Source: an uncultured Eubacteriales bacterium
Lineage (GTDB): Bacteria > Bacillota > Clostridia > Oscillospirales > CAJFTT01
Direction of reading: 5' to 3'
Assembly (NCBI GenBank): GCA_949284545.1
Contig: CASDVX010000099.1
Coordinates: 1-50,097 of the forward strand
Length of the DNA stretch: 50,097 bases
This document shows positions 12,382 to 28,321 of this stretch, one piece after another. Position 1 is the first letter of the stretch, and every line of letters starts with the position of its first letter. The notes under the pieces were generated by a model. The model was not told the origin of the DNA. It saw only the letters and a list, made by a program, of their open reading frames with translations, and ran no database searches. The translations under genes were made by a program, and so were the position numbers.

Positions 12382-13443
12382 TCATATGCTTTCGAGTATT
12401 TCCCGTATCGCGCCCACGAGAGCCGCCATCTGCTCTTCGCTGCCCACCGTGATGCGGTCGTAATCCTCTATCCTCGGAAGGGAGAAGTGCCGCACGAGTA
12501 TCCGGCGTTTCCTGAGCTCAAGGCAAAGTTCCCCGCCGCCTATTTTCGGGTGCCGTGCAAAAATGAAGTTAGTCATCGAGTCGGTGAGTTCAAAGCCCAT
12601 CCCTTTAAGCTGCTCCGACACGGCGCGGCGGGTGTCCGCTATCTTACGGCAGTTAAGACGGGTATATTCCCCGTCCTCCAGCACGCCTATGCCCGCAGCC
12701 ATGGTCATGCGGTTGATGTTATACGGGTTAGTGGAATATTTCACGGTTTTAAGGTCGTTTATCAGCTCCGGGCACGCCGCCCCGAACCCTAGCCTTGCCC
12801 CCGCCATGGAGCGGGATTTTGAGAACGTCTGTGTCACAAGGAGGTTGGGGTATCTGCGTATAAGAGGCACGCAGCTGCGCGCGCCGAAATCCACATAAGC
12901 TTCGTCGATGACCACCACGTTGTCGGGATTGTTCGCGACTATCGCTTCCACGCTTTCCGCGGACAGAGCGAGACCGGTGGGAGCGTTGGGATTGGCTATG
13001 AAGACCGTGCCGCCGCACCCGAAGTAGTCCTCCGGCGCAAGGGTGAAATCCTCACGGAGCGGTATTTCCCTGAATGGCACCCCGTTGAGTCCTGCAAAAA
13101 CCGGATAAAACCCGTAGGTGATATCGGGAAACACCGCCGGCACACTGTCGCTGCAAAAAGCCTTGAAGGCGAAATCAAGTATTTCGTCGGAGCCGTTGGT
13201 CATAAGGACACAGTCGCTGCCGACGCCGCACATTTCCGCGGTTTTCCGCGTAAGCTCCGCACATTCCGGATCCGGGTACAGCTCCAGTTTTTCTGCTGCC
13301 AGTGCGGCTGCCCTGACAGCTTTGGGCGACGGCGGGAACGGCGATTCGTTGGTGTTGAGCTTTATATACCCGTCCCCGGGCGGCTGTTCACCCGGCTGAT
13401 ACGGAGTGAGGCAGCGAAGCCGCTGACTTAAAAACCTGCTCAT
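12382..13443 (-). CDS. hisC: Histidinol-phosphate aminotransferase
   Basis: KLNTNESP, NGSDE, ANPNAPTG, DEAYVDF, TFSKSRSMAGARLG. Confidence 0.97.
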   Translation of the reverse strand: MSRFLSQRLRCLTPYQPGEQPPGDGYIKLNTNESPFPPSPKAVRAAALAAEKLELYPDPECAELTRKTAEMCGVGSDCVLMTNGSDEILDFAFKAFCSDSVPAVFPDITYGFYPVFAGLNGVPFREIPLREDFTLAPEDYFGCGGTVFIANPNAPTGLALSAESVEAIVANNPDNVVVIDEAYVDFGARSCVPLIRRYPNLLVTQTFSKSRSMAGARLGFGAACPELINDLKTVKYSTNPYNINRMTMAAGIGVLEDGEYTRLNCRKIADTRRAVSEQLKGMGFELTDSMTNFIFARHPKIGGGELCLELRKRRILVRHFSLPRIEDYDRITVGSEEQMAALVGAIREILESI

Positions 13444-14723
13444 TTCTTCTCACCCTCGGTCCTTATCAGCGCGCTTTCAGCGTGCGCGGTGAGTCCCTCC
13501 GTACGTGCGAAGAACGCCACATCCTCCGCAACGGCGCCGAAAGCCTCCGCAGAATAATAGGTGTACTGTATCTTTTTTACGAAATCATCCACCGACAGGG
13601 GACTGGAAAATCTTGCGGTGCCGCCTGTGGGAAGGGTGTGGTTCGGACCGGCGAAATAATCGCCCAGAGCCTCGGGACAGTTCCTGCCCAGAAACACCGA
13701 TCCGGCGTTCTCTATCCCGTCGAGGATGTCAAAGGGACTGTCCACGCACAGTTCGAGATGTTCCGGAGCAAGCTCATTGGATATTTCCACTGCCTCGGAC
13801 AGGCTGCCCGTTATGATTATTTTCCCGTTGGTGTCTATGGAAGCTCTTGCGATATCCTTCCTTTCGAGAAGGGGGATCTGGCGTTCAAGCTCGTCTCTCA
13901 CCGCGTATGCAAGCTCCTCCGAGTCAGTCACCAGGACAGCGCTTGCCAGCCTGTCGTGCTCGGCCTGGGACAGCAGGTCCGCCGCAGCGTGAGACGGCGG
14001 CGTGTTTTTATCCGCGATTATAAGTATCTCGCTGGGACCTGCTATCATGTCTATGGACACTGCTCCGAATACCTGCCGTTTCGCCTCGGCGACATACGCG
14101 TTGCCCGGACCGACTATCTTGTCCGCACGAGGTATGGTTTCGGTGCCGTACGCCATGGCGGCCACAGCCTGAGCACCGCCTACGGCGAAGACCCTGTCCA
14201 CGCCGGCCACATATGCGGCGGCGAGGATGGCGGGATTGACCTTTCCGTCCTTGCCCGGAGGAGTGGTCATTATTATTTCCCCGCATCCGGCAATTTTCGC
14301 AGGTATGGCATTCATGAGCACGCTGGACGGGTACGCCGCGGTGCCGCCGGGGATGTAAAGACCGGCCCTGTGTATCGGAACGACTTTCTGCCCCGTCACA
14401 ACACCCTTTTTGTTATTGAGTATAAACCCGCTCCTCACCTGGTTTACGTGAAAGGCGCGGATGTTTTCCGCCGCCCTCTCGAGCACGCCCCTGAATTCCG
14501 GGTCGGCCCCGTCGGCCGCGGCCTTTATCTCCGCCGCAGGCACTTCGAGGCTGCTCAGCTTTACCCCGTCGAATTTCTCGCAGTATTCCATAAGGGCCGC
14601 ATCGCCCCGCGCGCGCACGTCGCTTATTATGGAGGACACCGTGTCCTCAAGGCCGGTTATCCGTTCCCCGCGCGCCAGGATGCTGCTCACGGGAGTGTCG
14701 CACAGTTTCATTATCTTTATCAT
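13440..14723 (-). CDS. hisD: Histidinol dehydrogenase
   Basis: YIPGGTAAYPSS, GGAQAVAA, GPGNAYV, AGPSE, APEHLE, GPNHTLPT; RBS GGAGGA before ATG 14723. Confidence 0.98.
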   Translation of the reverse strand: MIKIMKLCDTPVSSILARGERITGLEDTVSSIISDVRARGDAALMEYCEKFDGVKLSSLEVPAAEIKAAADGADPEFRGVLERAAENIRAFHVNQVRSGFILNNKKGVVTGQKVVPIHRAGLYIPGGTAAYPSSVLMNAIPAKIAGCGEIIMTTPPGKDGKVNPAILAAAYVAGVDRVFAVGGAQAVAAMAYGTETIPRADKIVGPGNAYVAEAKRQVFGAVSIDMIAGPSEILIIADKNTPPSHAAADLLSQAEHDRLASAVLVTDSEELAYAVRDELERQIPLLERKDIARASIDTNGKIIITGSLSEAVEISNELAPEHLELCVDSPFDILDGIENAGSVFLGRNCPEALGDYFAGPNHTLPTGGTARFSSPLSVDDFVKKIQYTYYSAEAFGAVAEDVAFFARTEGLTAHAESALIRTEGEKK

Positions 14724-14754
14724 AAGGCATCGTTCCTCCGAAAGAAATACGTAT

Positions 14755-15393
14755 TCATATGATACCTGTGAGCTGCGAGGAAAGTCCGTCAAAAAGAGCG
14801 GATATCCTGTCGCCCTTAAACATAAAGCCCGCTTTGTTTGCAATGAGCCTCGCGCTTATGGGGAATATCTCCTCATATACCTCAAGGTCATTTTCCCTCA
14901 GTGTGGTTCCCGTCTCCACTATGTCCACTATCACGTCCGAAAGCCCGAGTATGGGTGCTATCTCTATGGAACCGTTGAGATGTATTATGTCGATATCGCG
15001 CCCGCGGGAAGCATAGTACCTCTTTGCCGTGTTCGCAAATTTTGTGGCGACACGCAGGGTACGCAGACGGTCGTCCCTGAACCCTTTTTTGGCGGCGACG
15101 GCCATACGGCACCTGCCGAGCCCCAGATCCAGAAGCTCGTACACATCGGGCTCGTATTCGGCGAGTATGTCCTTGCCGGCGACACCCACGTCGGCGGCGC
15201 CTCGTTCCACGTATATGGCCACGTCGGACGGCTTCACCCAGAAGTAGCGCACGCCGGCGGCCGGGTTTTCAAATATCAGCTTACGGCTGCTTTCAAGCAC
15301 CGAGGGACATGGAAAACCCGCGCTCTCGAACATGCCGTATACCTTTTCGCCAAGCCTCCCTTTGGGCAGGGCGATGTTAAGCATATCTTCCAT
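14755..15393 (-). CDS. hisG: ATP phosphoribosyltransferase, short form
   Basis: IALPKGRL, RVATKF, GSIEIAP..GLSDVIVDIVETGTTLREN; 212 aa, HisZ-dependent type. Confidence 0.97.
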   Translation of the reverse strand: MEDMLNIALPKGRLGEKVYGMFESAGFPCPSVLESSRKLIFENPAAGVRYFWVKPSDVAIYVERGAADVGVAGKDILAEYEPDVYELLDLGLGRCRMAVAAKKGFRDDRLRTLRVATKFANTAKRYYASRGRDIDIIHLNGSIEIAPILGLSDVIVDIVETGTTLRENDLEVYEEIFPISARLIANKAGFMFKGDRISALFDGLSSQLTGII

Positions 15394-15395
15394 TG

Positions 15396-16499
15396 TCAGG
15401 TACCTCCGTCCATCTTTACGAGTTTGCCGTATCTCAAACCCTCGGGCAGCTGCCTGAGGGCCAGCACGCGGCTGCCGTCAGCCGACAGCTCCTCGGCCTT
15501 CTTCCTCACCGCAGCCGGATCACAGTCGCATCCGTATAAAAGGACCACGTCCGCGTCGTATGCAACGGAATCGGCGCCCAGGTACATCAGCTCATCCAGA
15601 TACACGGCGAACCCCACTGCCCTTGAGGAACGGTTCATTTTTACCATCAGCCTGTCATACTGTCCCCCCGACAGAATGCCGGCGGGTATGCCGGGCACGT
15701 ACCCCTTGAACACCACTCCGTTATAATATCCTATATCGTTGACCACGGAGAAATCCACGCGTATCATATCCGCAAAACCGGCGCGTTTCAGGGCGCCGAG
15801 CAGCGCCTCCAGCTGATAAACGGATTCACCCAGAACCCCACCGTCAGACAGCGCTTTTATCTCGTCCGGAATCGACGCCCCGCTGCCGGTCACGGAAACA
15901 AGACTCAGCATCGCGCGCAGGCCGTCACCGTCCGCGCCGCAGTCACGGCATATTCTTGCGAGCTCATGGGAATTTTTTTCGCCCACGCAGCGAAGCACGC
16001 CGGGACGTTCGTTTTCCGGTATGCCGCAGGCGTCCATAACGCCGGACAGTATCCCGAGATGGGATATGCTCAGTATCCCTCCGGACGAGACCGTGCGCAG
16101 GCTCTCCGCCGCAAGGGAGAGGACCTCGAAAAGGCAGTAGCTGTCCGTGTCCCCTATGCATTCCACGCCGACCTGAGTTATTTCACGGAAATCCCTCGTT
16201 CCCTTAAATACCCGGTATACGTTCTCATTATAATACACTTTCTGCACTTTTCCGGGCTCGTCGCGCCCGTTTTTCACTATGGAAAGCGTCACGTCCGGCT
16301 TTAACGCCATCAGCTTTCCGTCTGTGTCGGTGAAAGTTATTATATTGTCAGAGATGAGGAAATCCCTGTTGCGCGCGTAAAGCTCGTATTCCTCGAATTT
16401 GCTCATCCTGTAACGGGAATAACCGCTGAGCTCGTAAAGGGCGCTGAGCCTTGATATCATGGATTCCCCGGAGTTTTGCGTGGCGTAAACGGAATTCAT
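15396..16499 (-). CDS. hisZ: ATP phosphoribosyltransferase regulatory subunit
   Basis: LKPDVTLSI, YYNENVYR, QVGVECIG, YYNGVVF, SGGQYD; immediately upstream of short hisG. Confidence 0.93.
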   Translation of the reverse strand: MNSVYATQNSGESMISRLSALYELSGYSRYRMSKFEEYELYARNRDFLISDNIITFTDTDGKLMALKPDVTLSIVKNGRDEPGKVQKVYYNENVYRVFKGTRDFREITQVGVECIGDTDSYCLFEVLSLAAESLRTVSSGGILSISHLGILSGVMDACGIPENERPGVLRCVGEKNSHELARICRDCGADGDGLRAMLSLVSVTGSGASIPDEIKALSDGGVLGESVYQLEALLGALKRAGFADMIRVDFSVVNDIGYYNGVVFKGYVPGIPAGILSGGQYDRLMVKMNRSSRAVGFAVYLDELMYLGADSVAYDADVVLLYGCDCDPAAVRKKAEELSADGSRVLALRQLPEGLRYGKLVKMDGGT

Positions 16500-16828
16500 T
16501 TCGCACTTCCTTCCCCGCCGTCCGAAGATTCGACCGGCGCTTCTCTCTTTTTAAGCCTGTCTATGGCCGTGCGGTACCCTCCGCTCCCGTAATGCAGACA
16601 CCGGCTAACACGGCTTATGGTGGCGGTGCTCACGTTGACGTCCCGGGAAACCGCCTGATAGTTGGCGCCCTGATCCAGCAGCACCGCGACTTCCAGCCGC
16701 TGAGTCATGTCCTGTATTTCCTTTATGGTGCATATATCCTGAAAAAAGTCATAGCACTCGTCAATAGTTTTAAGGTTCAGAATAGCCCTGAAAAGCCTGT
16801 CTACGGCCTGCGAACGTATACCCGGCAT
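16496..16828 (-). CDS. yerC: TrpR-like YerC/YecD family regulator (histidine repressor HisR)
   Basis: ECYDFFQDICTIKEI..QRLEVA..VSTATISRVSRCLHYGSGGY; first gene of the his operon. Confidence 0.92.
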   Translation of the reverse strand: MPGIRSQAVDRLFRAILNLKTIDECYDFFQDICTIKEIQDMTQRLEVAVLLDQGANYQAVSRDVNVSTATISRVSRCLHYGSGGYRTAIDRLKKREAPVESSDGGEGSAK

Positions 16829-16862
16829 TGATTATACACCTCCGAAATTTTAGAACATTATT

Positions 16863-16891
16863 ATGTTATCACTTTATTACAGTAAAGTCAA
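16863..16891 (-). promoter_or_regulatory. Sigma-A promoter of the his operon containing a palindromic HisR/YerC operator (16870-16889)
   Basis: Minus strand TTGACT-N17-(TG)TAACAT; palindrome CACTTTA-TTACAG-TAAAGTC covers the spacer and overlaps the -35. Confidence 0.8.
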
Positions 16892-16974
16892 CGGTCGAAG
16901 ATGTTTATTTTTTGTAAAGAAATTTTGTGAAAAACGTGTGTTGTACGCCGATTAAAATATTGTGGCGTATATCG

Positions 16975-17004
16975 GGATAAACTGACCTTTTGCAGCCGAT
17001 AATA
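16975..17004 (+). promoter_or_regulatory. Putative sigma-G-like promoter of the spore pair
   Basis: GGATA-N18-GATAATA. Confidence 0.35.
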
Positions 17005-17056
17005 GTTGAAGGGAGCACGCTGCTCCGAAAAATGATGAAAGAAAGGGACGGTAAAT

Positions 17057-17233
17057 ATGTCACCGAAGGAACTACTCTATATCGAGGACGCTCTCGGACA
17101 TGAGCAGCAGATGAAAAAATCGTGCTGCGACTTTGCCTCTCAGCTCCAGGACGCGGAGCTGAAGAATTTTGTACAGGGCCTTTGCGGCCGCCACCAGAAG
17201 ACTTTTGACGGGTTTTTCGGTTTGCTGGGATGA
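17057..17233 (+). CDS. Small 58-aa spore-coat-associated protein (absent from the ORF track)
   Basis: RBS GAAAGGGA; MSPKELLYIEDALGHEQQMKKSCCDFASQLQDAELKNFVQGLCGRHQKTFDGFFGLLG*; directly precedes the CotF-like gene. Confidence 0.8.
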   Translation: MSPKELLYIEDALGHEQQMKKSCCDFASQLQDAELKNFVQGLCGRHQKTFDGFFGLLG

Positions 17234-17272
17234 CCTGCTGCCGGAGCAATAACAGAGGAAAGGAAGAATAAA

Positions 17273-17518
17273 ATGGACGACAGAACAATAATGGACAATA
17301 TCCTGTCGGCGACCAAGGGCGCCTGCGACCTGATGATGCACGGGGCTATCGAATCGTCGACGCCGGAGGTACACGGTAAATTCAAGCAGGCTTTTGATGA
17401 GACGCTCTGTATGCAGAATGAAATATATTCCGTTATGGCCCAAAAGGGATGGTACCCCGCACAGCAGGCGGAGCAGCAGAAAATAGACGCGGCGAAGCGC
17501 AAGTTTTCGGCGCAGTAA
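17273..17518 (+). CDS. Coat F domain spore protein
   Basis: MDDRTIMDNILS..K..CDLMMHGAIESSTPEV...QNEIYSVMAQKGWYP; RBS GAAAGGA. Confidence 0.85.
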   Translation: MDDRTIMDNILSATKGACDLMMHGAIESSTPEVHGKFKQAFDETLCMQNEIYSVMAQKGWYPAQQAEQQKIDAAKRKFSAQ

Positions 17519-17524
17519 AGCAGG

Positions 17525-17553
17525 TTCCCCGCAAAAAAGCGGGGAATTTTCTT
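17525..17553 (+). terminator. Rho-independent terminator
   Basis: TTCCCCGC-AAAAAA-GCGGGGAA followed by TTTTCTT. Confidence 0.85.
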
Positions 17554-17733
17554 ATTCCGGGGGCGAACGGCTTTGCCCGTACGGGGCAGGCGGCGTTCCC
17601 GACGGGGGGCCGTGAAAGAGGACGCACACGAACCGGCAGCCGCCGCAGGGAAGCGTCCGGACCGTGCGCGGCGTCGGCCGCCGTCACACCTCCCGGCGTA
17701 AGTGTCCGAAATGTGAAAAACTCGTCAAAACCC

Positions 17734-17762
17734 TTGTGTGCGAAGGAAGTGTGTAGTATAAT
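17734..17762 (+). promoter_or_regulatory. Putative sigma-A promoter of the desulfurase-thiI operon
   Basis: TTGTGT-N17-TATAAT. Confidence 0.6.
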
Positions 17763-17797
17763 AAAGCGGATATTGCAAATTTAACGGGGAATGGCAA

Positions 17798-18931
17798 ATG
17801 ATATATTTTGACAACAGCTCTACCACGGCGCCGTCTCAGGCGGCCATAGACGCCGTAAAGGGCATGCTTGTAAATTTTGGTAACCCGTCGTCACTCCACA
17901 GGCTCGGGGCGGCGGCCCAGACGGAGATGGACGAGGCCCGCGAGGCCGTGGCCGGCGCGGTGGGGGCCTCCCCGTCGGAGATATTTTTCACAAGCGGGGG
18001 CACGGAGGCAAACAACACCGCGATAACCGGAGGCGCGGCGGCGCGCCGGCGCAGGGGAAACAAGATAGTGATCACGGCCGTGGAGCATGATTCCGTGCTG
18101 ATGCCCGCCAAAAACTTGGAATCCGCCGGGTTTCGCGTGGAGACCGTCGCGCCCGGACAGGACGGGACGATTGATCCGTCGGCTTTTGAACGGGCGGTGG
18201 ACGGGGACACCGTGCTTGTATCCTGTATGATGGTGAATAACGAGACGGGAGCCGTTTTCCCCGTGGAAAAGCTCAGAGACATAGTCGTCAGGGCGGGCGC
18301 ACCGGCGCTGATACACGTGGACGCGGTGCAGGCGCTGGGCAAGCTGAGAATATCGGTACAGGATATCGGATGCGATATGATGACGCTTTCCGCCCATAAG
18401 ATACACGGCATAAAGGGCTGCGGGGCATTGTACGTAAAAAAAGGAGTGACGGTGCGTCCCTTCATGCTGGGCGGAGGTCAGGAAAGGGGCTTCAGAGCCG
18501 GCACCGAGGCCACGGCGGCCATAGCCGCGTTCGGAGCCGCGTGCAGGGAACTCAATCCGGCGGAGGACGCGGCAAAAATGCTGGAGGTCAAGGAAGAGCT
18601 CCTGCGCGGGCTTGCCGGGATACCTCAGGTAATAGTGAATTCGCCCGGGCTGTCGGCGCCGCACATAATAAACTTTTCCGTGCCGGGTTACCGCAGCGAG
18701 ACGCTGCTCCACGCCTTTGAGGCCCGGGACATATACGTATCGTCCGGGTCGGCGTGCAAAAAAGGGGCGCTGAGCCACGTGCTCATTGCACAGGGCCTTT
18801 CGAGGGAACGGGCGGACAGCGCGGTGAGAGTCAGCCTCTGCAGGGACAACACGCCGGATGAGGCGGCGCGCTTCATCGCCGCTCTTAAGGAGATAATATC
18901 GACGGTGGCGCATGTGAGGGCGAGGTCCTGA
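17798..18931 (+). CDS. Cysteine desulfurase (NifZ/IscS-like, ThiI partner)
   Basis: IYFDNSSTT, FTSGGTEANN, VNNETG, HVDAVQ, SAHKIHG (PLP Lys), SSGSAC (catalytic Cys). Confidence 0.95.
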   Translation: MIYFDNSSTTAPSQAAIDAVKGMLVNFGNPSSLHRLGAAAQTEMDEAREAVAGAVGASPSEIFFTSGGTEANNTAITGGAAARRRRGNKIVITAVEHDSVLMPAKNLESAGFRVETVAPGQDGTIDPSAFERAVDGDTVLVSCMMVNNETGAVFPVEKLRDIVVRAGAPALIHVDAVQALGKLRISVQDIGCDMMTLSAHKIHGIKGCGALYVKKGVTVRPFMLGGGQERGFRAGTEATAAIAAFGAACRELNPAEDAAKMLEVKEELLRGLAGIPQVIVNSPGLSAPHIINFSVPGYRSETLLHAFEARDIYVSSGSACKKGALSHVLIAQGLSRERADSAVRVSLCRDNTPDEAARFIAALKEIISTVAHVRARS

Positions 18932-18972
18932 AGGCGCTTTGCGGAACACAGCACATAGGAAAGAGCGAGGAT

Positions 18973-20151
18973 ATGAAAGAAGTAATACTGATAAAAAACG
19001 GCGAGCTCGCATTGAAGGGCCTCAACCGGAGCACCTTTGAAAACATGATGATGACGGATATACGCCGGCGAATAGAAAAATGCGGAAAATTTTCCGTTAC
19101 TTCGTCCCAGTCCACCGTGACGGTGTCTCCGGAAGACGGGTCGGCGGACATACGCTCGGCTTATGAGAACATCATGAGGGTTTTCGGTATAGCCGCGGTT
19201 TGTCGCTGCGCGGTGTGCGAAAAGGACATGGACAGCATATGCCGCACCGCTGAGGAATATTTGAAAGACAGGCTGACGAGGGCCGAAACATTCAAGGTGG
19301 AAGCCAAACGGGCGGACAAAAGGTTCCCGTTGAAGTCTCCGCAGATATGCGAAAACGCGGGAGAATACATACTGAACGCTTTCCCGGGCATAAGGGTGGA
19401 CGTGCATAATCCGGATGTTACAGTACACGTTGAGATAAGAGAAAGGGAAGCGTACATACACGCGGGCCTGGAGCCGGGCGCAGGAGGTATGCCGGCAGGC
19501 TCCAACGGCAGGGCGCTGTTGCTGCTGTCCGGCGGGATAGACTCGCCCGTAGCAGGGTGGATGATGGCAAAGCGCGGCGTAAGCATAACCGCCGTTCATT
19601 TCATGAGCCCGCCGTACACCGGCGAAAGGGCAAAGATGAAGGTCGAGAGTCTTTGCCGCAAGCTTGCCGGCTTCTGCGGCAGAGTGAGACTGTACGAGGT
19701 GGGTTTTACGGAGATACAGGAAAGGCTGCGCGACAGCTGTCCGGAGGAGATATTCACCGTGCTCATGAGAAGGCTCATGATGAAAGTTGCGTCGCAGATA
19801 GCAGAAAAGGCGCACTGCAAGGCGCTGATAACCGGCGAGAGCATAGGTCAGGTGGCCAGTCAGACCATGGACGCGCTGGTGTGTACGGACGCGGCGGTCT
19901 CCATGCCGGTTTTCAGACCGCTGATAGGTATGGACAAGGAAGAGATAGTGCGCATAGCCAGAAAGATAGATACTTTTGACACATCAATTCTCCCGTATGA
20001 GGATTGTTGCACGGTGTTCACGCCGAAGCATCCGAAGACCCGCCCCGTGCTTGCCGACGTTATAAGAGCCGAGGAAGAGGCGGGGGACTGGGCGCAGATG
20101 ATAATAGACGCGGCGGACGGAGCGGCCGTAGCGGAATACAGCTGCTTCTGA
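18973..20151 (+). CDS. thiI: tRNA 4-thiouridine synthase
   Basis: GELALKGLNR, THUMP region, PP-loop LLSGGIDSPVA, TGESIGQVASQT, PYEDCC. Confidence 0.97.
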   Translation: MKEVILIKNGELALKGLNRSTFENMMMTDIRRRIEKCGKFSVTSSQSTVTVSPEDGSADIRSAYENIMRVFGIAAVCRCAVCEKDMDSICRTAEEYLKDRLTRAETFKVEAKRADKRFPLKSPQICENAGEYILNAFPGIRVDVHNPDVTVHVEIREREAYIHAGLEPGAGGMPAGSNGRALLLLSGGIDSPVAGWMMAKRGVSITAVHFMSPPYTGERAKMKVESLCRKLAGFCGRVRLYEVGFTEIQERLRDSCPEEIFTVLMRRLMMKVASQIAEKAHCKALITGESIGQVASQTMDALVCTDAAVSMPVFRPLIGMDKEEIVRIARKIDTFDTSILPYEDCCTVFTPKHPKTRPVLADVIRAEEEAGDWAQMIIDAADGAAVAEYSCF

Positions 20152-20200
20152 TGTGCATGCGGAGCCGTGAGGCCTGAGACTGGAAAGGAGTGTTCGGCAG

Positions 20201-22924
20201 ATGTCGGTAGAATATACCATGAATATCGGACTTTTCGGAGTGCCGGGAGACGAAGCCCTGCTCACCGCGAAGGGAGACGGGCAGGACGGCGCCGATATCC
20301 GGGCGGAATCGGGCGAGATGGTGACCTCCGTGACCGTCACGGCCGAAGCGGAGACGGAAGATGAAGCCAAGCGGATATGCGGCGCGGCGGCGGACCGTCT
20401 TGAGGCTGCATACGGGCAGAAGGTGTTTACCAGGGAGTACGGGACGTTGTGGAACACGGCGGTGTCCGAATGCCTGAAAAACGGCTCGACTTTCGCTCTG
20501 GCGGAATCCTGCACCGGCGGACTTATATCGAAAATGGTGACCGATGTCCCGGGAGCGAGCGGCGCGTTCAAATTGGGGGTGGTGGCTTATCACCCGGAGG
20601 CCAAGCGGGACGTGCTGGGAGTGCATGAGGAAACGCTTGAGAAAAAAGGCGTTGTAAGCGCTGAGACCGCGGCGGAAATGGCCGAGGGAGTGAGGATGCG
20701 CGCAGGCAGCTCGCTGGGCATCGGAGTGACGGGCTTTGCAGGCCCGGGCGGCGGAGAGAAGAATGAGCAGGGAAAGGTTTTTATAAGCCTCAGCGACGGC
20801 AATACCGCGTATACTCGCCGTATCGACTTGCCGGGCGCATCCAGGGGCGCGGTCAGGCGCACGGCGACCCTCAACGCGCTTGACATGATAAGGCTTTACG
20901 CTCAGGGGCACCGGGAAGGGATAGGAACCCCGGTACAGGCCCCGTCCGTTGCGGGCGTCGTGGCAGGTAAAGCCGCATCCAAAAAAAAGCCGCCTCTTTA
21001 CAAACGTTTTATCGGCTTTTTCACGGAGTTCCCCAAAGACCCGGCGAAGGAAAAAATAAGGAAGCTCGTGTTGTGCGCTGCCATTGCCGTGATGTGCTAC
21101 GCGGGCTTTCAGCTGGCAAGCGGAGCGTATTTTTACCTGGCAAACAGCATGACCGAGGGGCACATAAGCAACCTTATAAATCAGGGTAACGACCTTACCG
21201 ATGACGAGAGAAACGATCTGATCGGCGAACTCGAGGGCGAGGGTGTGGACGTGCCCGACGAGATACAGAATTGGGCGCTGCTGCTTCTTAAAAACAACCC
21301 CGACCTTGTGGGGAGGGTACAGATAACCACATCCGACGGCAGCAAGCTTATAGATCAGGTTGTGGTTCAGGGAAGCGACAATGAGGAGTACCTCAAAAAA
21401 GACTTTTTCGGCAACTACAACACCATGGGATGCGTGTTCATGGATTCCAGATGCGATCCTGCCGGCGAAAGTATGAACACAATAATCTACGGCCATTCCA
21501 CAAAACGGGTGGATAAGATATTTAATGGGCTTCAGCAGTACAAGAGTCTTGATTTCCTCAACGAAAATCCGCTTATAACCTACAGCACTCTCACGGAGGA
21601 AAGTGTTTACAAGATATTTGCGGTTATGATAATAAATACCAACGAGGCTCAGGGGGAGACTTTTTCCGGGTGCTATTACACCGGCACGTCTGTTTTTTCC
21701 AATATGGAAGCCATACGGGACCGTTCCATGTACGACACGACCGTTACGGTCAACGCGGCCGACAAGATACTCACCCTGTCAACCTGCACCTTTGAGATGG
21801 ACGATCTGAGACTTGTGGTCATGGCCAGGAAGCTGCGGGAGGGCGAAAGCCTTGAGGTGGAGCCGGCGTCGAACAACCCGGATACCGTATACTTTGACGC
21901 ATGGTATAAGGAATACGATATCGATGGGCCTACGACTTCCGGCGGTACATCGTCCGAAGGTACAACTTCCGGCGGCGCGTCGTCCGGCGAGGTATCTTCC
22001 GGAGAAGAAGGAAGATTTGATCTGTTTGATATGTCCATATCCTGCAAGGCCGCCTCGTCTTCAGGCAACAGGACCAGCATTAAGGTGTACGTGCCGTATA
22101 TAACCGACTTTGATTTTGACTGCACCGTAGGCATAGCGGAAAAGCCGGAGAACGGCAGCATAAGCGTGCTTTCATCGGACAACACGGTGACATACAGTCC
22201 GAAAGTCGGTTTCTCCGGCGTGGATACGTTCGTGCTGTCCTTAAACGACAGCAGCGGCTTCAGATACGACACAGCCACGGTGACTGTATATGTGGGCGTG
22301 GAACAGCAGACGGGGGTTATCCTCAACAAGGAAAGCATAAGCCTGTCAGTGTCCGCAGGAGCCACCGGCACGTGCCAGATATCTGCGTCGTCCGTGTCGG
22401 GCGGGGACCTGCAATATATACTTGTGGAGGGCGAAGGACTTTATTCCGGTACAGCATCCGTGGACGAAACCGGTAAAGTAACGTATACATCCACGTCAGA
22501 CGAGCGGTGGGCGGATACGGTAAAGGTAGCCATAGTTGACGAAACCGGTTCCGCGAGGGTGGCGGTGATAAACGTAAACAGCGGCCGTCCGTTTGAAACC
22601 GACCAGCACCCGGAAACCAGCAGACCGGACGCATCCGAGCCGGAAGATGAACCTGCGTCGTCCACGGTTTCCGGCAGCGGGACGTCTTCAGGCTCACAGA
22701 CTGTCGTTTCCGATGTCACACCTGAAGGCACGTCGTCGGAAACAGAGACCGATCCCGATGAGACCTCCTCCGGTACGGAGTCCGGCGGCGAAACATCCGT
22801 TACCGTCTCCGAAGATCAGCCGGAGATAACGTCGTCGGTGTCGTCTTCGGATCAGGCGCCGGAGGATACGTCCTCCTATCAAAGCACGGAGCCCGGCGCG
22901 TCACAGGCGTCGTCAGTTTCGTGA
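20201..22924 (+). CDS. Fusion protein: CinA/PncC (NMN deamidase-like) domain, TM helix, class B sortase, two Ig/cadherin-like repeats, acidic Ser/Thr tail
   Basis: AESCTGG, YHPEAK, GVTGFAGPGGG (CinA C-terminal domain); TM LVLCAAIAVMCYAGF; sortase B NTIIYGH, LTLSTC, RLVVMAR; VTYSPKVGFSGVDTF (cadherin-like). Confidence 0.88.
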   Translation: MSVEYTMNIGLFGVPGDEALLTAKGDGQDGADIRAESGEMVTSVTVTAEAETEDEAKRICGAAADRLEAAYGQKVFTREYGTLWNTAVSECLKNGSTFALAESCTGGLISKMVTDVPGASGAFKLGVVAYHPEAKRDVLGVHEETLEKKGVVSAETAAEMAEGVRMRAGSSLGIGVTGFAGPGGGEKNEQGKVFISLSDGNTAYTRRIDLPGASRGAVRRTATLNALDMIRLYAQGHREGIGTPVQAPSVAGVVAGKAASKKKPPLYKRFIGFFTEFPKDPAKEKIRKLVLCAAIAVMCYAGFQLASGAYFYLANSMTEGHISNLINQGNDLTDDERNDLIGELEGEGVDVPDEIQNWALLLLKNNPDLVGRVQITTSDGSKLIDQVVVQGSDNEEYLKKDFFGNYNTMGCVFMDSRCDPAGESMNTIIYGHSTKRVDKIFNGLQQYKSLDFLNENPLITYSTLTEESVYKIFAVMIINTNEAQGETFSGCYYTGTSVFSNMEAIRDRSMYDTTVTVNAADKILTLSTCTFEMDDLRLVVMARKLREGESLEVEPASNNPDTVYFDAWYKEYDIDGPTTSGGTSSEGTTSGGASSGEVSSGEEGRFDLFDMSISCKAASSSGNRTSIKVYVPYITDFDFDCTVGIAEKPENGSISVLSSDNTVTYSPKVGFSGVDTFVLSLNDSSGFRYDTATVTVYVGVEQQTGVILNKESISLSVSAGATGTCQISASSVSGGDLQYILVEGEGLYSGTASVDETGKVTYTSTSDERWADTVKVAIVDETGSARVAVINVNSGRPFETDQHPETSRPDASEPEDEPASSTVSGSGTSSGSQTVVSDVTPEGTSSETETDPDETSSGTESGGETSVTVSEDQPEITSSVSSSDQAPEDTSSYQSTEPGASQASSVS

Positions 22925-23027
22925 AACCGGGTTTACCAAACGAACCCGCGCGGCTTTTGCATGGGGTCAGCCGAAAACAGACCCCGGGGAGTTGTGGCTT
23001 TTTAAAGAGAAAGGAAATGATGTAAAT

Positions 23028-25169
23028 ATGGCGTCACCCGGACATGGCGTGAGAGCGTTGAGCGCGTGTCTGGCAGCGGCGGTCATGGTAACCGTGACCG
23101 CGTCGTGCAGCCTTAACGCGGGAGGGATATTCGCCGGGATATTCGGCGTGGATACCGGAAGTTCACAGGACGGGGAGGATTTTGTGCAGGGTTCGCACAA
23201 TTCCTCGGAGCAGTCTGTCCAGATACCGGACGACGCGGTGGGGCTTGACAGCGACCTGTCGTCTCAGGAGGATATATCGGACCCGTCGGTGCCGCTGAAC
23301 GATGTGGAATTCAAATACGACAAGGCGTACATAGAACTCGGCGCGGCGACGCGTTTAAGATATACTCCCGTGCCTATAGACGGGAACACGTCGGATCTCA
23401 AATGGGTATCATCGGCTCCTGAGATCATATCCGTGTCTAACCGCGGCAAAATAACCGCCAACTCCGGAGGAGTGGCTACCATAACGGTGTATTCCGAAAC
23501 CTATGAAGTCATGAGCACATGCCTTATCTACGTAAGGGGCGAGGCTGAAGAACCCAATGAGTCCATAGAGGGTGAGGACGGCGAAAGCGGACTGATTGCT
23601 CCGCCGTCCGGCGACGGGGAAACAGTGCCTCCCGACGGTTCAGGCGGGACAAGCTCAGGCGGAACCAGCTCAGGCGGGACAAGCTCAAGCGGAACCAGCT
23701 CGGGTGGGACAAGCTCGGGCGGAACCAGCTCGGGCGGAACCAGCTCGGGCGGGACAAGCTCGGGCGGGACAAGCTCAAGCGGAACAAGCTCAGGCGGGAC
23801 AAGCTCGGGTGGAACCAGCTCAGGCGGGACAAGCTCAGGTGGAACCAGCTCGGGTGGAACCAGCTCAGGTGGTACAAGCTCGGGCGGAACCAGCTCAGGC
23901 GGAACCAGCTCAGGTGGAACCAGCTCAGGCGGGACAAGCTCGGGCGGAACCAGCTCAGGCGGGACAAGCTCAAGCGGAACCAGCTCGGGCGGAACCGGCT
24001 CAGGCGGAGTGAGCTCGGGAATAGTGGACAGCAACGATGAGGACGACGATTACGATTTTGATAATACAAAGCTGCTAAACAGCCTGATAAGGGTAAAACA
24101 GCCGGACGGCACGTTTGTGGTATCCAGCATACTTGAATTTGTGGCATTTCACACAGGCCGCGAGATCAGCAGTCAGTTCAGCGACGAGGCCATACGCGCC
24201 CAGGCGGTGACGGTGTACACATACTATATCTGCTATAATATGATAAACGGCGCCACGTACGCAACAAGCGAACACAGGGAACTGCCCATCGACCCGGAAA
24301 CCGGCAGAGTGGTGTTTGACTCGGTGTACAATAAGTTCCCGCAGCGTGACGGCAGCTTTGACAGGCTCATGAGCCTGTGCGCGTCGGTAATAGGACAGAC
24401 GGTGCTTTACAACAATAAACCCATATGCGCGGTGTTTTCCGCGATGAACAGGGGAGCGTCCCAGTGCAACTCGCCCTATTGGAGCAGCTACGTGTACCCA
24501 TATCTGATAAGAGTGGACAGCCCGTGGGACAAGGACGCGCCGGATTACGAGACGACAAAGACTCTGTCGAAAGCCGATGTGCAGCGTATACTGACGGGAA
24601 TATCCCCGTCGCTGGTGCTGCCCACGGACCCGTCGGAGTGGTTTGACGAGATAGAGAGGGATGTGCCGGACGAGGGTTACGTGCTGTATGTTACCATAGG
24701 CGAAAGCTCAATCAAGGGCAGTACGCTCCGCAGCAAGCTGGGGCTTCGTTCCAACTGCTTCTTCGTTGAGTACGACGAGGATACGGAAATGTTCACGTTC
24801 ACTGTTCACGGCTACGGCCACGGGATAGGGATGAGCCAGTGGGGAGCCCAGGGAATGGCGGAAGAAGGATATACGTACGTTACCATACTGCGCCACTACT
24901 ATCAGGGCACTTATGTGGGTTACTATGAACCGTACCTTTATTCAGGCAGCATCGAAGAAAATATAGCGTCTTCAGCGCCTTCCGAGAGCGGCACGGAGTC
25001 CCGCGGTGAAGAGTCACAGGAGGCGACCGATCCTCAGGAGAGCACAGCATATTCCGACAGCGGAATTCAGGTGTCGGGCGAAAACGCATCAGAAAGAGAA
25101 AAGAACACATTGTCCGGAGTTCAGGAGGATGTTACCGCGGACGGTGTGACCCGCGAGCCGGACGAATGA
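23028..25169 (+). CDS. SpoIID/LytB-domain lipoprotein with an Ig-like domain and an (SGGTS)n linker
   Basis: Lipobox-like VTASC; Ig-like LKWVSSAPEIISVSNRGKITA; SpoIID motifs EAIRAQAV..YTY and GYGHGIGMSQWGAQGMA..GY.Y..ILRHYY. Confidence 0.88.
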   Translation: MASPGHGVRALSACLAAAVMVTVTASCSLNAGGIFAGIFGVDTGSSQDGEDFVQGSHNSSEQSVQIPDDAVGLDSDLSSQEDISDPSVPLNDVEFKYDKAYIELGAATRLRYTPVPIDGNTSDLKWVSSAPEIISVSNRGKITANSGGVATITVYSETYEVMSTCLIYVRGEAEEPNESIEGEDGESGLIAPPSGDGETVPPDGSGGTSSGGTSSGGTSSSGTSSGGTSSGGTSSGGTSSGGTSSGGTSSSGTSSGGTSSGGTSSGGTSSGGTSSGGTSSGGTSSGGTSSGGTSSGGTSSGGTSSGGTSSGGTSSSGTSSGGTGSGGVSSGIVDSNDEDDDYDFDNTKLLNSLIRVKQPDGTFVVSSILEFVAFHTGREISSQFSDEAIRAQAVTVYTYYICYNMINGATYATSEHRELPIDPETGRVVFDSVYNKFPQRDGSFDRLMSLCASVIGQTVLYNNKPICAVFSAMNRGASQCNSPYWSSYVYPYLIRVDSPWDKDAPDYETTKTLSKADVQRILTGISPSLVLPTDPSEWFDEIERDVPDEGYVLYVTIGESSIKGSTLRSKLGLRSNCFFVEYDEDTEMFTFTVHGYGHGIGMSQWGAQGMAEEGYTYVTILRHYYQGTYVGYYEPYLYSGSIEENIASSAPSESGTESRGEESQEATDPQESTAYSDSGIQVSGENASEREKNTLSGVQEDVTADGVTREPDE
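23640..24014 (+). repeat. Intragenic 15-bp tandem repeat, about 25 copies, encoding (S-G/S-G-T-S)n
   Basis: Units such as TCAGGCGGGACAAGC and TCGGGCGGAACCAGC; 24 units at 23640-23999 plus one degenerate SGGVS unit. Confidence 0.97.
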
Positions 25170-25197
25170 CGCGGGAGATTTGGAGGTCAGTGTTCCG

Positions 25198-26226
25198 ATG
25201 ACGGACGGAAAGATCCTGATTTTAGGGATTGAGAGCTCCTGCGACGATACCGCGGCGGCGGTCGTTGCCGACGGCAGGGAGATACTGTCGTCGGCGGCGT
25301 CGTCTCAGACGGAGCTTCATGAAAAATATGGCGGGGTGGTGCCGGAGATAGCATCCAGACGGCACGCAGAAACCATTGACGCAGTGGTGAAGGATGCGCT
25401 GGACAAGGCCGGTAAGGATATTTCACAGCTGGACGCGATCGCCGTCACGGCAGCCCCCGGCCTTATAGGTTCGCTGTTGGTGGGGGTAAGCTATGCCAAA
25501 GGAATGGCATATGTTTCCGGGAAACCGCTGGTACCGGTACACCACATACGCTCTCACATAGCGTCCAACTATCCCGCGCACCCGGATCTCGAGCCGCCGT
25601 TTTTGTGCCTTGTGGCCTCCGGGGGTCACAGCCACATAGTGCTGGTGAAAGGCTATACCGATTTTGAGGTGATAGGGCGCACCCGGGACGACGCAGCCGG
25701 AGAATGCTTTGACAAAACCGCGAGGGTGCTGGGATATCCGTACCCGGGGGGAATATATATAGACAGGGCGGCATCCCGCGGGAACCCGCACGCATTTGAG
25801 TTTCCAAAATGCAGGATAGAGGGGGCGCCGCTGGATTTTTCATTTTCAGGCCTCAAAACTGCCGTGATAAACACGGTGCACCGCCTGAAACAGGCGGGAT
25901 CTCCTATACCTGCGGAAGACATAGCCGCGTGCGTGCAGCACACTATAGCGGACACGCTCACAAGCCATCTTGAGACCGCGGCGGAGATGTGCGGATGTGT
26001 GAAAATAGCTATTGCAGGGGGAGTGGCCGCCAACAGCGGGCTGAGACAGTACGCCGGTAAAATGTGCGAAAAGCACGGATACAGGCTGTTTTTGCCGCCC
26101 GTGTCCCTATGCGGGGACAACGGGGCAATGGTCGCCTCTCAGGGTTTTTACGAGTTTGAGGCGGGGGTGCGGGCAGGGCTTGATCTCAACGCGCGCGCTA
26201 CTATGGAGATATCGGACGCGTTCTGA
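25198..26226 (+). CDS. tsaD: tRNA N6-adenosine threonylcarbamoyltransferase
   Basis: ILGIESSCDDT, GGVVPEIASRRH, HHIRSH, SGGHS, TRDDAAGECFDK, CGDNGAMV. Confidence 0.97.
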   Translation: MTDGKILILGIESSCDDTAAAVVADGREILSSAASSQTELHEKYGGVVPEIASRRHAETIDAVVKDALDKAGKDISQLDAIAVTAAPGLIGSLLVGVSYAKGMAYVSGKPLVPVHHIRSHIASNYPAHPDLEPPFLCLVASGGHSHIVLVKGYTDFEVIGRTRDDAAGECFDKTARVLGYPYPGGIYIDRAASRGNPHAFEFPKCRIEGAPLDFSFSGLKTAVINTVHRLKQAGSPIPAEDIAACVQHTIADTLTSHLETAAEMCGCVKIAIAGGVAANSGLRQYAGKMCEKHGYRLFLPPVSLCGDNGAMVASQGFYEFEAGVRAGLDLNARATMEISDAF

Positions 26227-26266
26227 TACCTGCGGGGAAATGCGGCGCACAGAGGAGAAAAGAAAT

Positions 26267-26719
26267 ATGCGGATAATGGCTGTTGACTACGGAGCCGTAC
26301 GCACGGGGATTGCCGTGTGCGACGAGGCGGAGATGCTGGCGTCTCCCGTGGAGGTTATAACCGAGTACCATGAAGAGAAGCTTTGCGGCCGCATAGCAGA
26401 GGAGGCAAAAAAGCTCCGGGCGGCGCATATAGTCATGGGACTGCCGAAAAATATGGACGGGAGCGAAGGAGAGAGCGCGGCGAAGGTCAGGAGGCTTGCG
26501 GACAAGGTCCGGACCGAGACAGTCCTGGAGGTCAGCCTGTGGGACGAACGCCGCACCACCGTGGAAGCTCATGGTATACTGTCCGCAAACGATGTCCGCG
26601 GCGGAAAGAGGAAGAAAGTCGTGGACAGCGTGGCAGCGGCGGTCATTCTCGAGGGCTTTTTGATGAGCCGGAGAAATAAACGGTCGGCTGAAAACGCCGG
26701 TAAGGAGAAAAATTTATGA
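26267..26719 (+). CDS. ruvX: YqgF/RuvX family nuclease
   Basis: MRIMAVDYGAVRTGIA, GLPKNMDG, WDERRTT, VDSVAAAVIL. Confidence 0.95.
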   Translation: MRIMAVDYGAVRTGIAVCDEAEMLASPVEVITEYHEEKLCGRIAEEAKKLRAAHIVMGLPKNMDGSEGESAAKVRRLADKVRTETVLEVSLWDERRTTVEAHGILSANDVRGGKRKKVVDSVAAAVILEGFLMSRRNKRSAENAGKEKNL

Positions 26720-27600
26720 TAAAATTGCTCAGAAGGATAATTCCTGCCTTTGACAATCTGCTGGAATCGTTTCTGGGATCCTTTGCGGATACGGTGATGG
26801 TGGTTATAGACATCGCCATTATCTACCTGTTTGTACGCATAGCCATACCCGTCATAAAAAGGATAGTTTCAGGCTCTGTCAAAAGAAAGGCGGAGAAGAC
26901 CGGGAACGCGTCCAGGTACGCGACAATAGGCAAGCTTCTCGACCATGCCGTGACGGCACTTGTATGGTACGTAGGAATCGTAGCGGTACTCAGCGAGCTT
27001 GAGCTTACTACCACAGCCATGAGCATGCTCGCCACCGCAGGAATAGGCGGTGTGGCGGTAGGTATAGGAGCTCAGAGCTTCATACAGGACGTGATTAACG
27101 GAGGATTCATCCTGATAGAGCAGCAGATAGCGGTGGGGGACTATGTGCGCATGGCCGGAGTGGACGGCACGGTAGAGGACATCAATATGCGGACCACTCG
27201 TCTGAGGGCGTTTTCGGGCGAGCTGCATATAATACCAAACAGCTCCGTGACGGTGCTGACAAATTATTCGAGGGGGACCAACCGAGCGCTTATAGACGTA
27301 CCCATGCCGTACGACGAGGATCCACGCCGGGTCTGCGACATATTAAGCAAGGCCATGGAGGAATATTACGAGGAGCACGGGGAACTGCTGGATAAGGCGC
27401 CGGAGGTCATAGGGATAACCGAATACGCCGGGTCGGCGATAATGATAAGAATAGTCGCGTTCTGCAAAAATCTCGGCCACTGGGAGACCGAGCGCGGAAT
27501 GCGCGCCGCGGTACTCGACGCATTCTCAAAGAACGGCATATCCATACCTTACGACACCGTAGTGGTCATGGCTCACGATGGAGGGAAAACCGATGAATAA
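26716..27600 (+). CDS. mscS: Small-conductance mechanosensitive channel family protein
   Basis: GIGGVAVGIGAQSFIQDVINGGFILIE..VGDYV, GTVEDINMRTT, IPNS. Confidence 0.92.
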   Translation: MIKLLRRIIPAFDNLLESFLGSFADTVMVVIDIAIIYLFVRIAIPVIKRIVSGSVKRKAEKTGNASRYATIGKLLDHAVTALVWYVGIVAVLSELELTTTAMSMLATAGIGGVAVGIGAQSFIQDVINGGFILIEQQIAVGDYVRMAGVDGTVEDINMRTTRLRAFSGELHIIPNSSVTVLTNYSRGTNRALIDVPMPYDEDPRRVCDILSKAMEEYYEEHGELLDKAPEVIGITEYAGSAIMIRIVAFCKNLGHWETERGMRAAVLDAFSKNGISIPYDTVVVMAHDGGKTDE

Positions 27601-28321
27601 GCGTGATTTTGCACCGGCCGTAAGGCGCATATGCGCGTTTATCACGGCCTGCGCGGTTATACTTACGGCTTCCTGCGGGGATAAGGTGCGTGTTACCGAC
27701 ACCGACCAGCTCGCGCCGCCGGAAATAGGAGAGACAATAGCCGTGATGCATACGTCCCGGGGGGACATATATTTCAGACTTTTCCCCGAGGACGCGCCGA
27801 AGGCGGTGGATAATTTCACCTCTCTTGCTGAGGACGGGAAATATGACGGAGTGAGCATATTCCGGTCGGAAAGAAATTACCTTTTGCAGTCCGGAGACTA
27901 CGAAAACAACGACGGCACCGGAGGAAAGAGCAAGTGGGGCAAGGGTTTCGGTGTTGAGATAAGCAGCAGCCTCCACAATATCCGCGGAGCCCTGGGCATG
28001 GCAAGATCCAGCGACCGCAACGGCCAGGGATCACAGTTTTACGTGGTGACCAGAGGATACGTGTCCGTATCGTATACGGAGCAGCTTAAGGATACCGACC
28101 CGGACCTTGCGAAGAAATACGAGGTAAACGGCGGCATTCCAGAGCTTGACGGAGACTACACCGTTTTCGGACAGGTTTTCGCCGGGTTTGCGGTGCTGGA
28201 CGCGCTCAACAGCGTGGAGACGGACGACGACGATAAACCCGTATCGCCCATATATATCCTCAGCGTGGAAATCACGCAGTATTCCGAAGATATGCCGTCT
28301 CCGGAAACTCCTGCGGGCTGA
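27593..28321 (+). CDS. Cyclophilin-type peptidyl-prolyl isomerase, lipoprotein
   Basis: Lipobox LTASC; LFPEDAPKAVDNF, QSGD..GTGG, RGALGMA, GSQFY, LDGDYTVFGQV. Confidence 0.9.
   Translation: MNKRDFAPAVRRICAFITACAVILTASCGDKVRVTDTDQLAPPEIGETIAVMHTSRGDIYFRLFPEDAPKAVDNFTSLAEDGKYDGVSIFRSERNYLLQSGDYENNDGTGGKSKWGKGFGVEISSSLHNIRGALGMARSSDRNGQGSQFYVVTRGYVSVSYTEQLKDTDPDLAKKYEVNGGIPELDGDYTVFGQVFAGFAVLDALNSVETDDDDKPVSPIYILSVEITQYSEDMPSPETPAG

Follow-up and report, generated by a model that had tools for sequence, protein, structure and literature searches.

Sortases are seen as enzymes that work on their own outside the cytoplasm, and CinA/PncC is seen as a soluble enzyme of nicotinamide adenine dinucleotide (NAD) salvage. 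To our knowledge, the link between CinA and competence has never been explained, and what the protein does in the cell has remained unclear ever since it was discovered as competence-induced. Here we analyze a gene that places both enzymes on one polypeptide. The gene, designated P0001, lies in a 50,097-nucleotide (nt) stretch of DNA from an uncultured Eubacteriales bacterium (the window; contig CASDVX010000099.1 of assembly GCA_949284545.1, forward strand), and its product combines a CinA/PncC-type nicotinamide mononucleotide (NMN) deamidase module, a single transmembrane (TM) helix, a class B sortase, two immunoglobulin (Ig)-like domains and an acidic tail. We favor, as the probable reading although with room for others, a housekeeping class B sortase that carries on its cytoplasmic N-terminus the only PncC-type NMN deamidase detected in the genome, with the two halves working independently.

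The closest described sortase is SrtB of C. difficile (CD2718; 4UX7, 5GYJ, 6KYC, 6KYD), to which P0001 is closer in sequence than to any other solved sortase (E = 5.6e-22) and with which it shares the class B fold and the His/Cys/Arg residues. Passages of PMC4155245 describe it as the single sortase of its genome, proposed to be a housekeeping enzyme, and report that it cleaves SPKTG, PPKTG, SPSTG and SPQTG, and not LPETG or NPQTN. Its (S/P)PxTG signals match the PPQTG, IPQTG and SPETG candidates of the source genome, in which the P0001 sortase is likewise the sole one detected. C. difficile SrtB has only a short N-terminal anchor (26 residues, removed in that paper) and no cytoplasmic enzyme, whereas P0001 has 288 amino acids (aa) before the TM helix and extends past the catalytic domain with its Ig-like pair and an acidic tail of 100 aa. 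The Isd-type SrtB enzymes of S. aureus (1NG5) and B. anthracis (2OQW/1RZ2) share fold and triad with P0001 but, as described in those passages, are NPQTN-specific and encoded beside their haem-uptake substrate; the P0001 candidates are of the xPQTG type and sit on contigs other than its own. On the CinA side, AtCinA (2A9S), TtCinA (4CT8) and S. mutans CinA (6MR3) are soluble; P0001 shares their PF02464 residues but would be membrane-anchored. In TtCinA of T. thermophilus, a three-domain protein, the N-terminal domain is a COG1058 ADP-ribose pyrophosphatase (PMC4246079); this domain is deleted in P0001. Passages of the same paper cite evidence for a CinA-RecA complex, and the title cited there speaks of membrane targeting of RecA.

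P0001 occupies 20201..22924 of the window on the + strand, the strand to which all coordinates of its parts refer, as a single open frame of 907 aa (ATG at 20201, stop at 22922-22924). An AAGGAG Shine-Dalgarno-like hexamer stands 9 nt 5' of the ATG, and the full-length product is estimated at ~96 kDa. That the frame is uninterrupted, as a first-pass annotation of the sequence had stated, is borne out by a gapless 23-kb contig of run X1. Pfam models for CinA (PF02464, aa 86-231, E = 1.8e-44, 151.5 bits against a cut-off of 23.5), Sortase (PF04203, aa 384-543, E = 3.2e-12, 46.7 bits against 26.6) and Big_9 (PF17963, two stretches, E = 5.2e-9, 37.3 bits against 23.6) all match above their cut-offs, as does the NCBIfam PncC_domain model TIGR00199 (123.8 bits against 68.9). 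An AlphaFold2 model, built from a 44-row family alignment, has a mean predicted local distance difference test (pLDDT) score of 84.6 and resolves the chain into the domains described below.

The N-terminal part of P0001 consists of a KH-type domain (aa 2-80, 20204..20440) and the PncC domain (aa 86-231, 20456..20893; modeled at aa 83-234). Although Pfam lists no CinA_KH match in P0001 at E<=0.1, aa 3-74 are modeled confidently as an alpha/beta KH-type domain (pLDDT 84-96), and KH and PncC together (235-247 columns) superpose on S. mutans CinA 6MR3 with TM-scores of 0.86-0.87 by target length (Foldseek). The alignment with an orthologue from the same family, in genome G002, agrees: aa 2 of P0001 aligns with aa 183 of that protein and the two are colinear onward, so that aa 2-80 correspond to about aa 183-262, a region in which Pfam reports CinA_KH at 187-258. 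What had been called a middle-domain remnant is thus better described as a complete, diverged KH-type domain. The lack of the N-terminal MoCF domain, in contrast, was correctly noted at first pass, as the starting point of the G002 alignment indicates; moreover, PF00994 has no match in P0001 or in the whole source genome, while the same search was positive in 13 of 14 control genomes. Both same-family orthologues, in G001 and G002, retain MoCF, KH and CinA in their fused frames.

The PncC active site is kept in full. PMC5384747 lists, in the passages available, the 17 most-conserved positions of AtCinA, and a HMMER alignment with 2A9S places identical residues at all 17 in P0001 (E102, S103, C104, T105, G107, G118, S120, Y130, K135, M160, T177, G178, A180, G181, P182, G191 and R215). 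The substitutions S31A, K63A and R145A, reported there to inactivate AtCinA, fall at positions equivalent to Ser103 (20507-20509), Lys135 (20603-20605) and Arg215 (20843-20845), i.e., the Ser/Lys dyad and the phosphate-binding Arg; the dyad comprises the AESCTGG serine and the YHPEAK lysine already named at first pass. The PncC domain is thus complete, and NMN to nicotinic acid mononucleotide (NaMN) deamidase activity is predicted from these residues. Since the phosphate of NMN is bound in AtCinA by S48 of the neighboring subunit, according to the same passages, the active enzyme would be a dimer.

Between PncC and the membrane (aa 236-288, 20906..21064) lie a flexible linker and, after it, a basic juxtamembrane motif (KKKPPLYKRFIGFFTEFPKDPAKEKIRK). 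The linker is weakly conserved over aa 236-262, with a pLDDT of about 54 at aa 251-260 and below 50 at aa 256-261, which suggests a flexible tether and not a rigid relay of signals. The motif, K/R-RF..F.P.KGD...IRK, is also the native N-terminus of unfused neighboring sortases. The only 19-residue window in P0001 with a Kyte-Doolittle value >1.5 is aa 289-307 (1.95), and the TM helix was assigned to aa 289-309 (21065..21127), within a long modeled helix at aa 282-330. It is preceded by a K/R-rich segment and followed by an acidic, helical stalk, predicted to be extracytoplasmic (aa 310-360, 21128..21280; short modeled helices at 334-346 and 357-365), in which aa 326-360 hold 1 K/R against 11 D/E. 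This basic-before, acidic-after pattern is that expected of an N-in/C-out signal-anchor. Hydropathy, charge and the modeled helix therefore all agree with the topology first proposed, CinA inside and sortase outside, which stands by prediction only.

The class B sortase catalytic domain (aa 361-549, 21281..21847) forms a barrel at aa 369-544 of the model, and pLDDT over the region is mostly >90. The motifs IIYGH, LSTC and RLVVMAR supply His432 (21494-21496), Cys529 (21785-21787) and Arg537 (21809-21811), and these three residues align with the catalytic residues of the C. difficile SrtB chains, including 6kyc (S207A) and 6kyd (R217A), so that the triad named at first pass is indeed kept. Every solved sortase among the Foldseek matches listed is of class B (1rz2, 5yfk, 5b23, 4ux7, 2oqw, 2oqz, 4lfd, 1qx6, 1qwz, 1ng5, 5jcv, 6kyc, 6kyd, 5gyj, 3psq and 4y4q; from B. 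anthracis, C. perfringens, C. difficile, S. aureus, L. monocytogenes, S. pyogenes and S. pneumoniae), with TM-scores of 0.68-0.85 by target length. With candidate substrates in the genome that mirror those of C. difficile SrtB (below), the sortase half looks like an ordinary working enzyme.

Beyond the sortase, a disordered S/T/G-rich linker (aa 575-603, 21923..22009; pLDDT <50 at aa 580-602) leads to two Ig-like domains, both modeled as beta-sandwiches. The first (Big_9/cadherin-like, aa 606-698, 22016..22294) holds the best Big_9 stretch (aa 635-696) and a weak Cadherin_5 match; the second (Big_9, aa 706-792, 22316..22576) has its strands modeled at pLDDT >89. Foldseek matches these repeats to cadherin- and SraP-type tandem Ig domains in the PDB, and there is a weak NCBIfam match to a tandem-95 repeat. 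The chain ends in a disordered, acidic, S/T-rich tail (aa 800-907, 22598..22921; pLDDT <50 at aa 805-907), in which no sorting signal and no second TM segment were found; S, T, E and D account for 31, 18, 16 and 11 of the 137 residues at aa 771-907. The two cadherin/Ig-like repeats and acidic S/T tail of the first-pass annotation are in accord with all of this.

An assembly or sequencing artefact, in which cinA and srtB are really two genes run together by a frameshift or a chimeric join, was also considered. The source genome is fragmented (159 contigs), and separate cinA and srtB genes do exist in some relatives, both of which would fit such an artefact. However, the 23-kb contig of run X1 spans 20100-23000 with 7 substitutions and 0 gaps, and the CinA-to-TM junction is also crossed by contigs of runs X7 (20794-21242), X9 (20875-21037 and 21078-21398) and X5 (21015-21170). 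These come from four different studies, and no insertions, deletions or joints are listed in any of them; of the ten substitutions listed among the covering contigs, six are synonymous. Over 20900-21100, where the first-pass annotation had asked for read support, the assembled contigs cross the junction with no indel. Its other concern, that relatives might encode the two as separate genes and that a stop or indel might show between them, was well founded as to the relatives, but no stop or indel appears in the contigs over the P0001 junction. In addition, the layout of truncated CinA, sortase and Big_9 occurs in seven further cluster representatives with 48-51% identity among the matches listed, making eight such proteins in the database with that of the window. 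Dozens of proteins with full CinA and sortase come from other assemblies, and fused frames were read directly in the genomes of 10 relatives, including both other genomes of the source's family (1097 aa in G001, 1089 aa in G002). An artefact has a negligible probability, and we consider it excluded for practical purposes.

A different possibility is that one open frame yields two proteins, a soluble CinA and a stand-alone sortase, through an internal start or proteolysis in the linker. The modeled disorder of the linker would allow this, and the sortase part does open with the N-terminal motif of stand-alone sortases. A scan of in-frame ATG, GTG and TTG codons, however, gave no convincing candidate for an internal start: none with a Shine-Dalgarno-like sequence precedes the juxtamembrane motif, and the sole candidates with such a sequence, GTG290 and TTG291, would start inside the TM segment. 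The fusion has also been retained over 42-51% sequence divergence and in many assemblies. We therefore regard separate products as very unlikely.

The genomic context gives both halves of P0001 a plausible task. The source genome (G000; 1.69 Mb, 159 contigs, 93.6% complete) has one CinA match and one sortase match, both in the P0001 gene, and the search for a second cinA/pncC, suggested at first pass, returned none in this 93.6%-complete assembly. NadD, NadE and the NAD-dependent DNA ligase LigA were all found, so that the cycle from LigA through NMN, PncC and NaMN to NadD and NadE would be closed only via P0001. This bears on whether the CinA-like domain might instead act on a new envelope substrate, for example as an amidohydrolase on a wall precursor at the inner membrane face. 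The PncC/CinA family does include other chemistry (P0001 scores 67.2 bits with the NCBIfam model of a 2-oxo-tetronate isomerase relative, whose cut-off is 201), and the domain is here membrane-tethered and linked to wall enzymes. Yet all NMN phosphate-, ribose-binding and catalytic residues of AtCinA are kept, and the canonical role is needed if the sole CinA found stands beside LigA, NadD and NadE; a switch of substrate thus seems to us highly improbable.

Since no other sortase was found in the genome, that of P0001 would serve as the housekeeping enzyme. Every frame of 100 codons or more in the source genome was scanned for an xPxTG or PAQTG end with a hydrophobic stretch and a K/R tail. 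Eleven frames passed, and ten were retained as candidate substrates (PPQTG, 6; IPQTG, 2; SPETG, 1; PAQTG, 1). The one dropped, on contig C91 with IPNTG, has its motif within the apparent last helices of a polytopic membrane protein, perhaps one of the SEDS/FtsW type. F5/8 type C (discoidin) domains were detected in 7 of the 10 candidates at E<=0.001, in 4 of them above the Pfam cut-off, and one candidate has a Listeria-Bacteroides repeat; several begin with what by eye are signal-peptide-like N-termini. On contig C69, three PPQTG-ending discoidin proteins lie within 5 kb (11238-15939), a probable substrate cluster.

Taken at its simplest, P0001 would be a single-pass, N-in/C-out, bifunctional membrane protein. 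On the inside, KH and PncC, probably as a dimer, would convert the NMN released by NAD-dependent DNA ligase to NaMN for NadD and NadE; on the outside, a C. difficile-type SrtB would cleave the (P/I/S)PQTG-type signals of about ten proteins, mostly with discoidin domains, for attachment to peptidoglycan, with the two Ig-like domains and the disordered tail reaching into the wall. The fusion would provide CinA with a membrane tether and the two enzymes with equal stoichiometry, and would probably present the sortase as a dimer. The activities, the dimerization and the independence of the halves are what we infer from the domains and residues described. Of the options raised at first pass, simple tethering of CinA to the membrane is the most economical. 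The alternative offered there, that the protein couples pyridine-nucleotide status to wall anchoring, is unsupported, given the poor conservation and low pLDDT of the linker, and so is regulatory coupling of CinA and sortase in general.

The architecture proved to be widespread. A protein database search gave 145 matches, of which 120 were listed, and 121 proteins were examined by BLASTP with the domains of P0001. Among these, 93 carry CinA and a sortase-like domain, with a TM helix between the two in 91 of the 93 and a gap of 84-380 aa between the domain matches. A few of them, from metagenome-assembled genomes of Clostridia/Oscillospiraceae, are already in NCBI under the name 'class B sortase' or 'competence/damage-inducible protein A'. 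We also examined 101 genomes of the order, in which sortases were called as SrtB-type at E<=1e-10 and a fusion was counted only after the frame had been read. CinA was found in 96, an SrtB-type sortase in 78, and both in 73; cinA lies immediately upstream of srtB on the same strand in 18 (10 fused in one frame, 8 adjacent), and these linked genomes span six families (f1, f4, f9, f10, f14 and f26). In a class-wide sample of 300 genomes, a whole-protein match at E<=1e-55 was found in the source genome only; this threshold missed the sampled and fused G015, so the result is only a floor and no evidence of confinement to the order. The literature searched held, among the matches listed, no paper on a CinA-sortase fusion and none joining a sortase with an NMN deamidase. 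The statement at first pass that no characterized protein has this architecture therefore stands for that literature; the impression of an unusual architecture does not, as it is present in 93 of 121 proteins and 10 of 101 genomes. The CinA-TM-sortase architecture is thus uncharacterized in the literature searched, yet widespread in databases.

Upstream of P0001, thiI (18973..20151, +) is preceded by a nifS/iscS-like gene (17798-18931), both identified by Pfam, and the order nifS-thiI-cinA-srtB recurs in the loci of relatives, some of which add a second sortase and some a spoIID-like gene. In five of these loci cinA and srtB are in the same frame, separated by one stop and 16-22 nt that hold a ribosome-binding site and an ATG. 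Within f10, and also within f14, fused and split forms are both found. The fusion probably arose from such a tightly spaced cinA-srtB pair of the nifS-thiI-cinA-srtB block through loss of the cinA stop codon; because the N-terminus of the sortase is already cytoplasmic, such a loss would be topologically harmless. The MoCF/COG1058 domain would have been deleted later, in the lineage of the source. We infer fusion rather than fission as the direction. Some related loci depart from the simple pattern. A second srtB-like gene follows the first in f9 (L017-L019: G232, G297, G084) and f4 (L010-L013: G034, G059, G005, G080), and the cinA of f9 is a short, PncC-only form of 171-179 aa. A frame of 876 aa in G233:C4 (L020, 904-3531), taken for a fusion, was rejected, as three stops (TGA, TAA, TAA) lie between the genes.

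Downstream, and beginning 67 nt past the P0001 stop, is a gene (22992..25169, +) for a protein with a TM segment, a Big_2 domain, an (SGGTS)n linker, a SpoIID/LytB domain (TIGR02669, 122 bits against a cut-off of 83.3) and an acidic tail. The linker is encoded by a 15-nt tandem array of 24.6 copies (23640-24008). A second, more canonical SpoIID copy is on contig C16 (81.8 bits, against 23.5 bits for the neighbor of P0001). The C-terminal domain of Spo0A was found on contig C33 (9141-9452, 157.5 bits), and the organism is thus probably a spore-former, which bears on the SpoIID-like neighbor. A spoIID-like gene lies within 6 kb downstream in 7 of the 18 linked genomes (the window and 6 of 17 relatives), comprising all three f1 genomes and four f9 genomes. 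Co-folding of the sortase and Ig domains (aa 340-800) with the SpoIID domain of the neighbor (aa 375-650) gave a score of 0.01 against a mark of 0.32, which counts neither for nor against binding. In a scan of 16500-27800 for promoters and terminators, counts were not above those of shuffled sequence (7 against 6.7, and 15 against 10.7). A strong terminator-like hairpin (17522-17549, 11 pairs and a T-run) lies just upstream of nifS, and the scan returned no comparable site from nifS to tsaD. Such a lack would fit a single long transcription unit running from 17798 to about 26700; as to operon structure, we claim nothing past the short intergenic gaps. Among the 20 sequencing runs listed as holding this DNA, none was of RNA.

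Several observations weigh against two independent halves, or against the assignment of either half. The NCBIfam model sortase_srtB (TIGR03064) matches aa 361-540 at 118.1-119.8 bits, below its cut-off of 153.75, because model positions 1-63, the anchor part, are unmatched (the match covers 64/65-235). The full-length CinA equivalog models NF001813 and TIGR00200 are also below their cut-offs; P0001 scores 160.5 against 379 with NF001813, over model positions 218-409 only. With a genome 93.6% complete and in 159 contigs, the 'only' CinA and the 'only' sortase mean that no others were found, not that they are absent, and the product may be processed into two polypeptides. A quick-method tree of the sortase domain, with 19 rows (12 fused, 7 split) and G015 on a long branch, best needs 4 changes of state, well-supported branches force only 1, and 36 of 500 label shuffles do equally well; from this tree we make no claim of repeated independent fusion. 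Furthermore, among the fused proteins in the matches listed, which are representatives of metagenomic clusters, the sortase triad is intact in 62 of 92 and degenerate in 30. These 30 keep the context of the motifs and have lost His and/or Cys and/or Arg (e.g., IIYGN, LLVTQ), although the case of P0039 is probably due to a slip in the alignment. Pure neutrality of the fusion would hardly explain why a folded pseudo-sortase stays on CinA, which hints at a joint role. Triple fusions in other lineages suggest a functional module: CinA-TM-sortase-SpoIID proteins with an intact triad (P0027) or a dead one (P0054, P0084 and P0099), and a CinA-TM-sortase-glucosaminidase protein (P0038). Those with SpoIID link the P0001 gene to its SpoIID-like neighbor.

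The pseudo-sortases form a subfamily that includes P0045-P0052, P0054, P0056, P0057, P0062, P0071 and P0082-P0091; the fused gene of G015 belongs there too. Set against the wider CinA-TM-sortase family, P0001 has an intact triad, has lost MoCF, and carries Big_9 repeats where some other members have a fused SpoIID; here SpoIID is encoded separately, by the next gene. A further protein, P0101 (575 aa), has ThiI (THUMP, ThiI and PP-loop) joined to a CinA domain.

These features raise the possibility of functional coupling, in which CinA is the cytoplasmic arm of a trans-membrane wall module made up of the sortase fold and a SpoIID-type glycan cutter. The state of NMN/NAD, or dimerization of CinA, might control how the outer enzymes act, where they sit or how they assemble; alternatively, CinA might be localized by the outer domains. 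Such coupling draws on the 18 of 73 genomes with both genes, in six families, that have cinA directly upstream of srtB, and on the triple fusions and the seven linked genomes with a spoIID-like gene nearby. Ser103, Lys135, E102, T105, G107, Y130, G178, A180 and G181 of CinA are invariant in 92 of 92 fused proteins among the matches listed, and the 30 that lack a sortase triad still keep the domain. The PncC active site, lying across the dimer interface, could moreover provide a dimerization switch. On the other hand, the CinA-to-TM linker is flexible, variable in length and poorly conserved, and one TM helix alone would transmit allosteric changes poorly. The two genes lie apart in 55 of the 73 genomes that have both, and the ThiI-CinA fusion P0101 indicates that neighbors in the block can fuse with no obvious shared function. 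The literature searched offers no experimental hint. On balance we see coupling as a tentative possibility, distinctly less probable than a housekeeping sortase with an independent CinA on its cytoplasmic end. A bolder form of it is unlikely: here CinA would be the cytoplasmic arm of a trans-envelope machine in gut Clostridia that ties a sortase-fold domain (catalytic in P0001, dead in about a third of members) and a SpoIID-type cutter to DNA-ligase or NAD turnover, for example in replication, repair or sporulation, or scaffolds their assembly.

For the source organism, the only sortase and the only PncC that were found are one polypeptide, and the xPQTG candidates make a ready list of predicted surface proteins, mostly with discoidin domains, for a bacterium that has not been cultured. 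For annotation, the family carries a warning: a protein of these genomes that bears the name 'class B sortase' or 'CinA' will often be both. If the fusion is a permissive one between operon neighbors, it would be a clean natural case of a type II membrane protein gaining a cytoplasmic enzyme at its N-terminus. A functional linkage would represent an unstudied tie between NAD or nucleotide turnover and the anchoring or remodeling of wall proteins in abundant gut Clostridia, and, were the trans-envelope machine real, CinA would gain a direct link to the cell envelope. What would lend the family importance is a module in which CinA, sortase fold and SpoIID function together.

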